Below are positions 2,107-64,000 of a stretch of 64,000 nucleotides of DNA, one piece after another. A program made the position numbers and the translations under genes. The notes beneath the pieces were generated by a model that worked only from the letters and a program-made list of their open reading frames with translations, searched no databases and was not told the origin of the DNA. Every line of letters starts with the position of its first letter. Positions within the stretch are counted from its first letter, which is position 1. Origin of the DNA: Eledone cirrhosa (lineage: Eukaryota); contig OZ024765.1 in NCBI GenBank assembly GCA_964016885.1, forward strand, positions 5,766,001 to 5,830,000, in the 5' to 3' direction.

Positions 2107-2182
2107 AAAACCTAACGGAAATCGAACCCTAAATCAGGATCTCCACCGTCTCTAGTGCTTACCATTAGGCCACAGGGACGGT
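2107..2182 (-). ncRNA. Pol III-type tRNA-like small RNA gene, copy 1 (once per unit)
   Basis: Minus strand ACCGTCCCTGTGGCCTAATGGTAAGCACTAGAGACGGTGGAGATCCTGATTTAGGGTTCGATTTCCGTTAGGTTTT: A-box TGGCCTAATGG, B-box-like GGTTCGATTTCC at tRNA spacing, T4 terminator. Confidence 0.6.
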
Positions 2183-2219
2183 TACAAAAATTTTTTGAAA
2201 ATTAGTATTTACTTACCTA

Positions 2220-2394
2220 TACTAGAAAAAACCGGAAGTGGAGAAAATTGAAAAACTTCTTCTTTTTCTTCCTCTGATTTTTGCCACGAACGATAACTCG
2301 TCTCTGACTTAAATCCAAATTTTGGATAAAAAAAAATCAGAGGAAGAAAAAGAAGATGTTTTTCAATTTTCTCCACTTCCGGTTTTTTCTAGTA
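2220..2394. repeat. Near-perfect inverted repeat: 63-bp arms (2220-2282, 2332-2394), 49-bp spacer, one mismatch
   Basis: TACTAGAAAAAACCGGAAGTGGAGAAAATTGAAAAACTTCTTCTTTTTCTTCCTCTGATTTTT matches the reverse complement of 2332-2394 at 62/63 positions. Present in all 13 full units (ACTAG at 2221, 6787, 11876, 16928, 21683, 26319, 30903, 35486, 40070, 44640, 49211, 53799, 58382). Confidence 0.97.
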
Positions 2395-2441
2395 ATGAAA
2401 AAGTAGGTTTATAAATATCAATTTTTAAGTAAGTTTCTGTA

Positions 2442-2532
2442 ACCGTCCCTTTAGCCTAGTGGTAAGTATAAGAGCCGGTGGAGGTCCAGGTCCGGGGTTC
2501 AATCACTGGCAGTGTGTCGTATTATATTTTTT
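2442..2532 (+). ncRNA. Pol III-type tRNA-like small RNA gene, copy 2 (once per unit)
   Basis: ACCGTCCCTTTAGCCTAGTGGTAAGTATAAGAGCCGGTGGAGGTCCAGGTCCGGGGTTCAATCACTGG...: A-box TAGCCTAGTGG, B-box-like GGTTCAATC, TATAAATA at 2410, T6 at 2527-2532. Confidence 0.6.
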
Positions 2533-2595
2533 ATAGTATAAAACAAAAATAAAAAAGTAACTTTATAAATATTAATTTTCACACTGTTTTTATAT

Positions 2596-2692
2596 CTGTC
2601 TCCGTTGCCTAATGGTAGGTATTAGAGACGGTGGAGAACCTGCTCTGGGTTTCGATTTCAGTCAAAGTCTATAGATAATAATTTCATTTTTT
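2596..2692 (+). ncRNA. Pol III-type tRNA-like small RNA gene, copy 3 (once per unit)
   Basis: CTGTCTCCGTTGCCTAATGGTAGGTATTAGAGACGGTGGAGAACCTGCTCTGGGTTTCGATTTCAG...: A-box T(T/G)GCCTAATGG (TGGCC in units 2-6), TTCGA loop, TATAAATA at 2564, T6 at 2687-2692. Confidence 0.55.
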
Positions 2693-2704
2693 ACTTTACT
2701 AGAG

Positions 2705-2792
2705 AAAAATATATAGTACAGATTCGGACTGAGATTGAACACCACATCAGTGTCTACATAGTCTCTAACACCTACCAAACAGATACAAGAAC
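2705..2792 (-). ncRNA. Diverged Pol III-type tRNA-like element, copy 4 (A-box damaged; possibly pseudogene)
   Basis: Minus strand ...GTTCTTGTATCTGTTTGGTAGGTGTTAGAGACTATGTAGACACTGATGTGGTGTTCAATCTCAG...TTTTT. Upstream AAAAGTAGGTTTATAAATAT (revcomp of 2807-2826) is identical to the copy-2 upstream sequence. About 13 nt shorter between TATA and TGGTA. Confidence 0.45.
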
Positions 2793-2842
2793 ATAAGAAA
2801 AAATTAATATTTATAAACCTACTTTTAATTTCCAAGCAAAAT

Positions 2843-2975: not shown

Positions 2976-3430
2976 TGATCTACAGGGACCTTCTTCATGG
3001 TCATAGCTGATTATTAAATATATACGGGAGAGTGTGTGTGTGTGTGTGTGTGTATTAGATCTTGCCGTGATGTACTCAGCAATAATGGTTTTCAATTCCG
3101 TCGTCCCTCCATCCTTGGTGTGTATATAAATATATATGTGATTTTAACGTACAACGGCGACAATATATAAATTTGTTTTGTTTGATAATAATTAGATAAA
3201 GCTAATTCTACAACCCCTGTTAAACATTGAAACCACGACTATAAAATATAGCAACAACCACGACATAACAGTCTCTGGTTAAATATGATTTAATGAAATT
3301 ATTGCTAGAGATTGATCCCTAATATTTTATCTCACTCCTTAACCAGGGAGGAAAGGTCCTCAGACTCGGACAATGTTGATAAGGAGAGCAGAGTGTATCC
3401 TTATTTGTCACGTCTTTCCAGTTGTCACGG

Positions 3431-3445
3431 TATATAAAAGGCAGT
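3431..3445 (+). promoter_or_regulatory. Canonical TATA box (once per unit)
   Basis: GG-TATATAAAAG-GCAG in a locally GC-richer context. TTGTCACG occurs twice just upstream (3405, 3422). Inr-like TCAGTT at 3475 and a possible donor AAG|GTCGTG at 3504/3505. Confidence 0.5.
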
Positions 3446-3579
3446 AGTACTAGTCACTCCTGCGAAAGACGTTGTCAGTTAGCCTTCTGTAACGAGAGAA
3501 GAAGGTCGTGGCTTTTTTTTCCTCCCTATCACATAATTCATACATTTGTCATCCTTTAGATATCAATATACAAGAGAAA

Positions 3580-4335: not shown

Positions 4336-4427
4336 CAATATACAGTATTGCAGAAGTAAATGAAAATATAAGAAGACATCACCATTGAACTGCAGATGAA
4401 AGTCAGTACTCTTTACATTTATCCCAG

Positions 4428-4625
4428 GTATATAGAAAGCTATCCTGATGTCCACTGATTGAAATATAAAACAATAAAGAAACACCACAATCCAGTAAAC
4501 CTTAGTAATAATCCAATTAAGCCGCCATTTACAGTAGAAAATAGTAAGAAAAACAAAGTCACACTCAGAAGTTAATGCAGTGAAAACAATAAAAATATTA
4601 TTAATAAATAATAATAATTTCATTT
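4428..4625 (+). other. Putative terminal exon A with poly(A) signal (once per unit; extra copies in units 2-4)
   Basis: Acceptor CTCTTTACATTTATCCCAG|G at 4427/4428, AATAAA at 4588 and 4603, GT/T-rich downstream tract. Paralog of 1749-1950. Confidence 0.45.
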
Positions 4626-60200: not shown

Positions 60201-62821
60201 CGACTTCAGAAAATACGGAGAAGCTATTGAAGGAATCCAGAAAAGAACAAAACAGAAAACACCAGAATTATTAAGAAATCTGTCTTCTGAAGAAAGATGT
60301 TAAACTTTAGGGATTGCAAATTTAGAGGAGATAAATCTAAGAGGGTGGGGGGGGGGGGACATGATAGAAATATATATTTAAAGGACTAATATTTAAATAG
60401 TAGTACACTATTCCAATGTAAAGCTCTGAATAACTATATCTTTCGGGGAGATATATCAAACGAGTGACATGATAGAAATATTTAAAATAATGAAAAGACT
60501 ACAATATACAGTATTGCAGAAGTAAATGAAAATATAAGAAGACATCACCATTGAACTGCAGATGAAAGTCAGTACTCTTTACATTTATCCCAGGTATATA
60601 GAAAGCTATCCTGATGTCCACTGATTGAAATATAAAACAATAAAGAAACACCACAATCCAGTAAACCTTAGTAATAATCCAATTAAGCCGCCATTTACAG
60701 TAGAAAATAGTAAGAAAAACAAAGTCACACTCAGAAGTTAATGCAGTGAAAACAATAAAAATATTATTAATAAATAATAATAATTTCATTTCATATTATC
60801 ATTAAATTGTTTGTCTATTTTTATTGTAAACATAAAATATACTAATATATATATACATTCATACATATACATCGATACATTCTGTGAGTATGTCTTACTT
60901 AGGCAAAAGTCAAGTAATTTGCGGGGAGGAACCAATCCGTTAAATTGATCCCAGTACATGACTGGTACTATAAGTTATATGCTCCAAAATCATAAAATTA
61001 TGGGTTAATCTAAACACTGAGAACACAAAGGTGGGGTAAAATTATTTAAAAATTGAGGTTTTAATATTTTATCTTTTATTTACAAATTATATGTCTTGGT
61101 GTCATATTTAAGGATATAATGTAGTTATTGGTGGAAATAATATAATATGTGATGAAGAGGTGTATATAACTGTGGATATAGAATTGTTTTAATCATTATT
61201 TTTAACGGACGAAAAAACTACATAATGACTTCTAGTCGGAGTTACGGGAAATTACGGCAAAGACCCTCCATGAAGGTTCAAATATTACACATTATCTATA
61301 TATAGGAATCGGGCTAAACAATTTACGGGCACGTCGCTCTAAGTTGGAATATTTTTCACACACACAGACACGGGAGTTAGGTATGGCATATTTCAAATAA
61401 GAGAACATTATTACAGACGGAGTCATTGTAGGTTGAAATCATTGTTAGACCGATCAGAAAGAAAATGGATATTTAATTCATGAAAAAACCTGAAGTGTGA
61501 AAGACAGAGTCGACCCTTTCTAGTAACAACACTAAGAAACCCATGAACGCCACCACGTCCTAAATCTAACTCTGCGATCGTCATATCAAATCGAAATACT
61601 TCACCAACTGTGGAAGATGAAGGATTGAAGAACTATGATATATAGCGAAGAGGCTTGTCTCCAGAACATTTAGTAAGGTGTAAGCCAAGGGTTGCCAAAT
61701 ATTTTGGCGTCATTTCCCACATTCACATGAAAAAATGTTCCACCAGCCACCTGTATAGTAAATATTTCAAAGTATACCAAATATGTTTCGTAAATGTTTG
61801 TTCCTGGTTTAATTTTCCCAATTAGCTTCCTGATTTTTATTCAGGTTCTTTGCATATATTCCTTGAATAGGTTTTCGGGTAGCATACCTTCTTAAATCTC
61901 AAAATTCTATATCGGCCACCAAAGTTTCCAATGGCCCTCAATTTTCTGTTCAGCTGCTCATCGCCCACCCAACAGTTGAAACCGCCCAGTTGAGGAACCC
62001 CTGTGGGTAAGCTACCTCGAATGATGCTATATATTAATCGAGAGGAGGAGGTGACTATTATAATTTTTATAAGTAATAATCTTTTAAAGACAAGAGGAAA
62101 AAATTCATCATTAAAATCATAAATATATGTCTACAGAATACAGATTATCAAAATGAAATTAAAAGCAAGTAAATCAGGGGCCACTAAACTTTACATATTT
62201 AGTTTTATTTCTATCGTGAAAAATGTTGATCTTCAGATATTAGATTATGGCGGCTGTAATTGTCTTTGTGTTTACGTGTTTGTTTGAAATCCTATTTTAA
62301 TGTTCGTCTCTCTTTAAACATCGTTTATAGTTTGTTAAAATTAATTTTAGATTATTCGTACCTCGTCTGTGTGGTTTATTTTGATGTAGCGTCCCTGTCT
62401 TGTTTATTTTTGGTTACATTTTAAATGTGAAATACAGGAACATCAGACATTAAAATGAAATGTTACGTAAAACACACACCTTGTGTTTATTCCAGGTATT
62501 TAGATAGATGTCCAGATGTCCACTGACAACAAAATAATACAATCATCCAGTGAAACTTGGTAATAATCCAGGTTCGTTGCAGTCACCATTCACAGTAAAC
62601 AATGGTTAGAAAGAATCAAAAACAAAAACAAAAGACGTATTCAGCAGTTAATGAAGTGAAAACAAAATAAAAACAACTTTACTGAATAAAATTCATTTCT
62701 TAATTTCAATAAGGTTTTTTGTGCTTTCTTTTATAAAAAAAAACAAATTTTAATTAAAATATGTTGCATTTTATACATAAATTGTTTATTTTTCATAAAT
62801 GCTTTTTAAAAATTCACGTGT

Positions 62822-62862
62822 TTGTTGTTATTATTATCATCAATATTATTATTATTATTAAT
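62822..62862. repeat. Imperfect (TTA)n trinucleotide tract
   Basis: TTGTTGTTATTATTATCATCAATATTATTATTATTATTAAT between the array end and the LINE. Confidence 0.85.
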
Positions 62863-62892
62863 AAAGGGCAGTGAATTTGCAGTGAATTGGCA

Positions 62893-64000
62893 GTTGCTGC
62901 CCATGTCTCACTACCATGCAACATTGTGCATCTCACACAGGCATCAAACAACCAACCTTTTGTACGCAGGGAGAAACCCTTCTTTGTCACCAGAGGAGGC
63001 AGCTCCCTAAACTTCTTCCAGCCTGTCCTTTTTCTAGATACTATGGCCTCGGAACACCCCCCTCCCATACTAATCTGATCACCTAGGTACTGAAGCTATC
63101 AACCACTTTTATAGAACCTACTTGCCTTTGAAAAATGTGTCTATCAATGCGACTTCTACTGTCAAATTTCCCTGTACATCTACTGCATACGTAGTTTTCC
63201 CTACCTGTTAGTTTGCCTGCTATCCCACTACATCTCGTGTGTACCCAAGATCTGCATTGTGTACATTTTATAGAATGTATGCCAGTTCCTTTTCTGCATA
63301 TCGAACATGGCCATCAGAGTTTTGTCCTTTTTTCTACTTATCAACACTTTTGTTTTAGCTAGGTTCACACTCAGTCCTCTTAATTCCAACTGCTGTTTCC
63401 ATAGCCAGAATTTATTCTCTAACTCCTCTACTGATTCTGCTATAAAAACCAGATTGTCAGTATAGAGAAGTTCCCGTGGGCAGCTAGTCTTAAACTCCTC
63501 TGTTATGGCTTGGAGGACTATAATGAACAAGAGCGGGCTGAGGACCGAACTCTGATGTACTCCTCCTTGTATCTGGAATTCCTCACTAAACTCCATTCCT
63601 ACCCTCACTTTACAGACAGCACCTCTGTACAAAGCTTGCACTGTCCTCACAAGCCATTCCTCATCACCTAGTTTCCTTAGGGATCACCAGATGACAGATT
63701 GGGATACACTATCAAAGGCTTTCTCTAGGTCAACAAAAGCTAAGTATAATGGCTTATTCTTCTCTAAGAACCTCTCTTGTAGTTATCTCACTAAGAAGAG
63801 GGCATCGGTTGTACTTTTCTCAGGCACAAAACCAAACTGCATCTCATCTAGTTTGACTCTATCTCCAATTAGTTGCTCTAATATCCTTTCTGCCACTTTC
63901 ATAACCTGATCCATCAGTTTTATGCCTCTATAATTGATCCTCTCTAGAGCATCCCCTTTACCTTTGTAGCAATTTATGAGAATACTGCTGCACCACTCTT
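62893..64000 (-). mobile_element. Decayed RTE-clade LINE, reverse transcriptase region (pseudogenised, 3'-truncated, continues past window end)
   Basis: Minus strand reads EWCSSILINCYKGKGDALERINYRGIKLM...MQFGFVPEKSTTDALFLVR*LQERFLEKNKPLYLAFVDLEKAFDSV...GVHQSSVLSPLLFIIVL...LLYTDNLVFIAES...NLAKTKVL...GWKKFRELPPLV...MLHGSETWA. These are non-LTR RT motifs, with catalytic YADD degraded to YTDN, in-frame stops and frameshifts. Confidence 0.93.

Follow-up and report, generated by a model that had tools for sequence, protein, structure and literature searches.

A candidate family of tRNA-derived Pol III small-RNA genes carried by a macrosatellite of Eledone cirrhosa

Pol III RNA systems of the kind proposed here are known from mammals, where 4.5SH, 4.5SI and snaR offer the analogues with which the locus may be compared. 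Rodent 4.5SH is encoded by hundreds of genes, each within a 4-5-kb tandem unit and carrying a TATA-like box (-31/-24; PMC10137851). It resembles our locus in its Pol III unit of ~94 nt, deviating A and B boxes, a TATA-like box near -30, a T run and the 4-5-kb tandem repeat (PMC10137851, PMC7279448). However, it arose from 7SL via the B1 SINE, has one gene per unit, and has a proven transcript and function (blocking B1 exonisation), whereas the copies described here are of tRNA origin, comprise four diverged paralogs per unit on both strands, carry a true TATA box and are known from sequence alone. Rodent 4.5SI is tRNA-derived and 98 nt long, with an A box, a B box, a TATA-like box and a narrow taxonomic range (PMC10137851, PMC7279448), but it has three genes per genome, is related to the B2 SINE and is not macrosatellite cargo. 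The snaR RNAs of apes are lineage-restricted, structured Pol III RNAs with diverged paralogs that spread with their flanks by segmental duplication into tandem arrays (PMC3045588); they differ in being Alu-derived, in numbering ~30 genes and in having demonstrated expression, and they bear no sequence relation to our copies.

In common with 4.5SH and snaR, the locus has Pol III-type genes that were multiplied, flanks included, as parts of tandem units of kb scale. The likeness is architectural only: descent from B1, B2 or Alu was rejected, with no Rfam match and tRNA-Arg as the closest sequence. Degenerate tRNA sequence, retained A and B boxes and many repeats also characterize tRNA-derived SINEs, SINE-derived satellites and Helenus TRIMs (PMC3531059, PMC10702118, PMC10886601), but in our copies a 5' flank with the TATA box travels along, and no tail, target-site duplication or LTR pair was seen. 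The giant squid has ~17,000 tRNA-derived loci (PMC6962438), which suggests that unnamed tRNA derivatives are common in cephalopods. As the initial annotation supposed, ours matched no named family: there is none in Rfam, and the literature searched contained no description of it, although SINE consensus collections, the octopus repeat library or octopus miRNA sets may include it as a named or unknown repeat. In the literature texts searched, three motifs from the window occur in a single, unrelated human paper. We consider the chances about even that the copies form a family of Pol III small RNAs that is lineage-restricted, of tRNA origin and in part pseudogenised, and comparable in kind to 4.5SH and snaR.

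The macrosatellite and its gene-like elements

The window (the whole 64,000-nt stretch of DNA that was analysed) is nearly filled by one array, with units of 4,566-5,089 nt that are 98.8-100% identical and 91 substitution sites across 12 aligned units (~4,566 nt per unit). Its features are as follows, in window coordinates.

1-62766: macrosatellite, unit ~4.6 kb, 13 complete gene clusters and a last partial unit
2107-2185, minus strand: copy 1, predicted 79-nt RNA, tRNA +1 at 2179, no TATA box
Copy 1 boxes, minus strand: A box 2162-2172 (full match), B box 2118-2128 (C61 missing), T4 2107-2110
2220-2394: MITE-like inverted repeat between copies 1 and 2, 63-nt arms, 98% complementary
2399-2425, plus strand: copy 2 upstream block, TATAAATA at 2410-2417
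2439-2532, plus strand: copy 2, predicted 94-nt RNA, tRNA +1 at 2445
Copy 2 boxes, plus strand: A box 2452-2462, B box 2496-2506, T6 2527-2532
Copy 2 helix X, plus strand: 2474-2478 with 2506-2510
2553-2579, plus strand: copy 3 upstream block, TATAAATA at 2564-2571
2592-2692, plus strand: copy 3, predicted 101-nt RNA, tRNA +1 at 2598
Copy 3 boxes, plus strand: A box 2605-2615, B box 2649-2659 (two mismatches), T6 2687-2692
2705-2786, minus strand: copy 4, predicted 82-nt RNA, B box 2731-2741, T5 2705-2709
2800-2826, minus strand: copy 4 upstream block, TATAAATA at 2808-2815
62767-64000: beyond the edge of the array, a broken non-LTR retrotransposon on the minus strand, with RVT_1 pieces and one PHD finger

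The final partial unit breaks off ~90 nt short of copy 1. The array is no assembly artefact, since pieces of the unit occur in the short-read contigs of two samples, at ~900-1,600 depth in S1 and also in S3. Set against low-copy contigs (depth 3-13), these pieces suggest a genomic array of more than 100 units, depth itself being no copy number. Sites 3145-3492 and 2776 reveal a second macrosatellite subfamily, which makes up roughly one third of the depth and has differences at many flank sites. SNPs and indels cluster in runs of adjacent units (units 2-6 versus 1 and 7-13), the pattern expected of unequal crossing-over or conversion.

Searched with a covariance model of the family, the window yields exactly 52 copies. 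The arrangement first described, four per unit with copies 1 and 4 on the minus strand flanking copies 2 and 3 on the plus strand, recurs in all 13 units. The model, run on unit 1 with filters off, gave no fifth paralog, position 900 and 3430-3520 included. The cores of the four copies are 63-81% identical and have non-tRNA sequence common to all, which argues that they descend from a single, already altered ancestor and not from four decayed tRNAs. The A box of copy 3 is a full match in five of the 13 units and has one mismatch in the other eight, and that of copy 4 has been removed by a 12-nt deletion in all 13. The deleted 12 nt are present elsewhere (depth 696/2,617 and 918/3,035 in S1, and a separate contig in S3); this intact form of copy 4, at a similar share of depth, may belong to the second macrosatellite subfamily.

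Several other elements were seen in the unit. The inverted repeat at 2220-2394 is much younger than the adjoining genes and lies beside the damaged TATA block of copy 1; contigs with different internal sequence and loose ends at 2277/2282 point to a dispersed family. Sub-threshold Rfam hits to a Phe leader and to plant miRNAs all fell within this repeat and were set aside as generic hairpin matches. The region upstream of copy 4 has an inverted 110-nt duplicate (707-813 on the plus strand versus 2843-2953 on the minus strand, E 4.5e-8) with no detectable gene behind it, perhaps the remnant of a fifth module. At 3431-3520 on the plus strand, TATATAAAAG is followed by a GC-richer 65-nt stretch with a terminal hairpin and T8; its folding z is only -0.25, it has no Rfam match, and a sister array shares it (by depth and variants). 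An AT-rich element occurs in two diverged copies (1739-1953 and 4418-4620, ~78%), and within the latter lies a 141-nt piece of which units 2-4 have tandem expansions; a minus-strand 98-codon stop-free frame has no Pfam match. Neither of two ORFs of the unit (98 and 97 aa) matched Pfam. Positions 170-250 resemble what we take to be the 3' part of a decayed octopus SINE.

tRNA ancestry and promoter layout

A tRNA derivation had been proposed for the copies at the outset, together with the expectation that tRNA searches would yield a pseudogene call or none. ARAGORN made no calls on the copies, Rfam gave none at gathering score, and no tRNA match appeared at E<=10. A pattern made up of the D arm of copy 1 plus a B box is found at no fewer than 156 loci from metagenome and viral contigs; among the matches listed, the motif lies in a tRNA at 150, and in 122 of those cases this is tRNA-Arg. 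Of the 68 distinct Arg sequences of 73 nt, 40 went into a tRNA-Arg covariance model, which aligns copy 1 end to end (2179-2107) at 20 bits, skipping the anticodon arm, and scores copy 3 at 4.6 bits; copies 2 and 4 do not align. The best identities of the four copies to the 40 tRNA-Arg sequences are 0.63, 0.59, 0.58 and 0.49, as against 0.49-0.53 for the best shuffled sequences, in a set picked by the shared motif. The distance from +1 to G53 in the copies equals that in tRNA-Arg, and from this equality the tRNA origin is clear. The score of copy 1 and the predominance of Arg in the motif set point the same way, and the proposed derivation holds. The isotype Arg is likely, as a best guess from a comparison set chosen by the shared motif.

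The copies are not tRNA genes, and we rejected that identification. They resemble tRNA-Arg genes in the 5' strand of the acceptor, the D arm, the A and B boxes, the +1-to-G53 length and partial acceptor pairing, but they lack an anticodon stem, a T stem and C61 as well as any ARAGORN or Rfam call. Over the four paralogs the D stem pairs in 13 of 15 cells, the T stem in 8 of 20 and the anticodon stem in 5-6 of 20. The earlier statement that acceptor, anticodon and T stems pair poorly is thus right for the last two; the acceptor stem is not simply lost, with 16 of 25 cells paired and two double changes (a number reached in 93 of 1200 neutral runs). A ribozyme, a vault RNA, a Sec-tRNA and a kink-turn were considered by eye and set aside; none had an Rfam match.

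The sequence features of a type-2 Pol III promoter with an upstream TATA box, as first proposed, are present: A and B boxes occur non-randomly, copies 2-4 have a TATA box, and there are T runs. With the box consensus of PMC7279448, A and B boxes stand at 33-bp spacing in copies 1-3, the A box with 0-1 and the B box with 1-2 mismatches. Boxes at tRNA spacing had been assigned to every copy; this applies to copies 1-3, and copy 4 is without an A box. The B boxes do all deviate at C61, as had been noted. In copies 1 and 2 the A box matches fully and C61 is the only deviation of the B box, and copies 3 and 4 have a second B-box mismatch. Unit 1 contains two strict and three relaxed A+B matches, versus 0 (maximum 0) and 0.33 (maximum 3), respectively, in Markov simulations (100 each).

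The motif TATAAATA lies at -35, -34 and -35 relative to the tRNA +1 in copies 2, 3 and 4. The TATA box reported upstream of copies 2 and 3 is therefore matched by one at copy 4, and the weaker version ascribed to copy 1 is absent or damaged. Among copies 2-4 the 27-nt TATA block is 89-96% identical, compared with 36-64% for the spacer, 63-81% for the gene body and 35-57% downstream, and 24 of the 27 block columns are invariant as against 3 of 11 in the 11-nt spacer (Fisher p=4e-4). Gene conversion could have homogenised the block and be an alternative cause of its identity. All four contigs from other loci with a readable block and gene start (low-depth contigs with joints 2425 to 2598, 2427 to 2596 and 2179 to 2800, and a loose end at 2800 in S3) have the same block, an unrelated spacer of 17-19 nt and the TATA box at -34/-35, by hand count.

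A pyrimidine-purine step at -7/-6 is found in all four window copies and in four of five readable outside leaders (hand count), which points to a likely start 29 nt after the TATA box and places the A box at +14; 4.5SH and 4.5SI have their A box at that same position. Starts that had been put at 2182(-), 2442(+) and 2596(+) are accordingly corrected to likely starts at 2185(-), 2439(+) and 2592(+), with another at 2786(-). Read to the first T runs, the predicted RNAs of 79 and 82 nt fall within the ~75-90 nt first estimated and those of 94 and 101 nt exceed it. The downstream oligo-T stands for copies 2, 3 and 4 (T6, T6 and T5) and less well for copy 1, which has T4: within 45 nt, T5 or longer follows 16% of unit positions and T4 40%, so the terminator of copy 1 is weak evidence.

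As judged from these features, the promoter layout of the family looks selected, and it offers the strongest sign that the copies are real genes. Copies 2 and 3 have the most complete predicted promoters, whereas copy 4, which lacks the A box, and copy 1, with only T4 and without a TATA box, are likely weak or dead in the array; some copies are probably pseudogenes.

Folding of the predicted RNAs

The initial annotation proposed a covarying family fold of two hairpins. In counts over the four paralogs, with copy 4 gapped and copy 2 stripped of two extra letters, the pairing given for hairpin 2 is confirmed, at 23 of 24 cells and with two double changes; in nulls that scan over all helices, its pattern arose in 18 and 21 of 3,000 runs (6 bp) and in 60 and 94 of 3,000 (5 bp). 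Hairpin 1 fares differently. Its outer stem pairs in 29 of 37 cells with one double change, and the hairpin folds well in copies 1 and 3, not in copy 2, and cannot form in copy 4; taken alone it has z values of -2.7 (copy 1) and -3.9 (copy 3), in windows chosen after the fact, and 0.08 (copy 2).

The two-hairpin fold is not supported as the covarying family fold: hairpin 1 is broken in copies 2 and 4, where a helix that the initial annotation did not contain, helix X, compensates. Helix X encloses hairpin 2, pairs in 18 of 20 cells with two double changes and is mutually exclusive with hairpin 1; its double changes coincide with the substitutions by which copies 2 and 4 lose hairpin 1. Taken together, helix X and hairpin 2 pair in 41 of 44 cells, with double changes at four pairs. 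Neutral divergence gave four doubles in two compatible helices 30 times in 1200 runs, and column shuffling did so 51 times in 1200 (2.5-4%), from four sequences only and with a star-tree null. In an alignment (A4) in which some rows are near-duplicates and the 5' end of copy 4 is out of place, the covariation score was 0.309 for D+X+hairpin 2 versus 0.194 for the earlier fold, both scores containing one false double change.

No single minimum-energy fold is common to the paralogs. By predicted energy, hairpin 1 is preferred in copies 1 and 3, with mean pair probabilities of 0.75 and 0.66 (helix X 0.0), and helix X in copies 2 and 4, with 0.88 and 0.36 (hairpin 1 0.01 and 0.0). The folding energy of the whole RNA is unusual only for copy 1 (z -2.3) and gives z values of 0.3, -0.9 and 0.6 for the others. 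Of seven between-unit SNPs, three break the earlier fold (2139, 2179 and 2597) and one breaks D+X+hairpin 2 (2139), as assigned by hand. Letters frequent in outside paralogs repair mismatches of hairpin 1 at 2176, 2595, 2603 and 2159, and four of five outside leaders could extend it if their unseen 3' strand is as in the window. It is likely, on these modest statistics, that RNA structure has been selected, and either hairpin 1 or helix X may be the native fold.

Spread, mode of action and competing readings

The upstream block lies outside the predicted transcript yet accompanies the gene, and the copies have at least 45 nt of 5' flank in common, which argues that they spread as DNA; the initial proposal of DNA duplication rather than SINE retroposition is thereby upheld. 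Gene-body sites are the most variable (34-62 contigs per run with another letter), followed by sites in the copy 4 block and flank (15-29 variant contigs), with 1-10 at most other unit sites; these counts come from 40 of 123 rows and partly reflect cross-mapping of the array's own paralogs. The excess in the gene bodies suggests that the family is larger than the array. The whole 1.86 kb was matched by 493 and 584 contigs, of which 10% and 7% ran on unlike, and these numbers fit tens to hundreds of variants and not a high-copy SINE. Joints at 2179 to 2135, 2173 to 2135 and 2168 to 2124 show the gene core elsewhere as head-to-tail repeats of 45-55 nt, in which the start of the next unit replaces the B box. 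A sequencing run from another organism gave only near-identical low-depth pieces and short AT-rich matches, and provides no second-species comparison; the family motifs had no match in the metagenome, viral and prokaryote collections.

We can present a rough proposal for how the elements would work. Four paralogs of one tRNA-derived element (likely tRNA-Arg) would have been multiplied by DNA duplication inside the 4.6-kb tandem repeat. By established Pol III biology, TFIIIC would bind the A and B boxes and TFIIIB the TATA box; transcription would begin ~29 nt past the TATA box, at a purine 6 nt ahead of the former tRNA +1, and would stop at the T run. The predicted RNAs of 79-101 nt would be unchargeable and consist of a D-arm hairpin and a 3' rod, the 3' half forming one long hairpin (helix X around hairpin 2) with hairpin 1 as the alternative fold favoured in copies 1 and 3. 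Lacking a T arm, the RNA would escape RNase P/Z and CCA addition and so retain its leader and U tail. By analogy with 4.5SH or snaR, such RNAs may act as dosage-dependent protein-binding RNAs. The conserved block, fixed spacing and compensatory changes show, at the level of the sequence, past selection; they do not prove that it acts at present.

Other readings of the same data deserve weighing. The copies may be relics of a once-active tRNA-derived gene family, now mostly pseudogenes and passive cargo of a macrosatellite amplified for other reasons, a possibility we consider unlikely but serious. The SNP density is equal in genes and flanks (7 in ~284 nt of gene bodies versus 91 in the ~4,566 nt of the unit, a comparison of low power that gives no sign of constraint within the array), the genes are only ~8% of the unit, and damage is evident in the A-box deletion of copy 4 fixed in 13 units, the TATA loss of copy 1, the degenerate B boxes and a different A-box deletion at another locus (X5 at 2800). 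Yet in three window copies and four other contigs the TATA block has been kept while the spacer changed freely at fixed length, compensatory changes are private to single paralogs, and two samples contain an undeleted copy 4 at substantial depth. Those compensatory pairs, which imply selection on RNA, also speak against a very unlikely DNA-level account, in which TFIIIC/TFIIIB landing pads organise or insulate the chromatin of the array and the RNA is a by-product. tRNA genes and TFIIIC sites have insulator roles, conservation is higher in the upstream block than in the part that would encode the RNA, and the preferred fold differs between paralogs; however, it is to the B box that TFIIIC binds most strongly, and that box is here the more degenerate.

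That the copies are Pol III precursors of short regulatory RNAs, with a Dicer-cut hairpin as in C. elegans mir-1829, seems to us extremely doubtful. Copy 3 does fold into a nearly symmetric 38-nt hairpin, but both hairpins are under 40 nt, which is short for Dicer, and the copies have no conserved 22-nt arm besides the promoter boxes and no Rfam miRNA match. Pol III-transcribed, Drosha-independent precursors do exist (10.1101/2025.04.11.648421). An origin as SINE heads, or from the tRNA-like portion of a Helenus-type LTR element, with subsequent capture by satellites, we rate just as unlikely as the landing pads. Mollusc SINEs often have tRNA-Arg heads (PMC4758252), the 58-63% identity to tRNA-Arg is near the SINEBase threshold, and the head-to-tail core repeats recall SINE-derived satellites. 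SINEBase, however, defines SINEs as interspersed, non-tandem and in at least 100 copies, and as matching a tRNA across 60 nt with 60% identity or more (PMC3531059), and we rejected the SINE assignment from the window and short-read contigs: the 52 copies are tandem cargo, other loci come with their 5' flank, and variant contigs number in the tens, not the thousands of dispersed copies that a SINE head would have. Retroposition of a Pol III transcript would not copy the common 5' flank; there is no body, tail or target-site duplication, and homology ends ~80 nt after +1 at the T run. The modest number of contigs over the whole 1.86 kb, with 7-10% running on unlike, also speaks against it. In a Helenus TRIM a PBS and a PPT lie between two LTRs that are nearly identical, whereas copies 2 and 3, the direct pair here, share only 73% identity.

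Returning to the preferred reading, a Pol III small-RNA family of tRNA origin, the two exclusive folds permit a bolder extension, which we think improbable. The 5' strand would either base-pair with an internal duplicate of the 3' acceptor strand (hairpin 1) or release that duplicate to the 3' rod (helix X), and the paralogs would be locked in the two alternative folds of an RNA switch; hundreds of genes in a cephalopod would then make an abundant, lineage-specific class of tRNA-derived Pol III RNAs that titrate an RNA-binding protein (for example La or a dsRNA-binding editor), the copy number of the array tuning RNA processing.

Rodents and apes have young Pol III RNAs that were multiplied in tandem arrays, and one of these, 4.5SH, proved to protect splicing from SINE exons. 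A tRNA-born family of this sort would go unnoticed by tRNA finders, by Rfam, in poly(A) RNA-seq and in small-RNA libraries of 20-30 nt. If our reading is true, a tRNA-born equivalent in a SINE-rich invertebrate would mean that this route is general.
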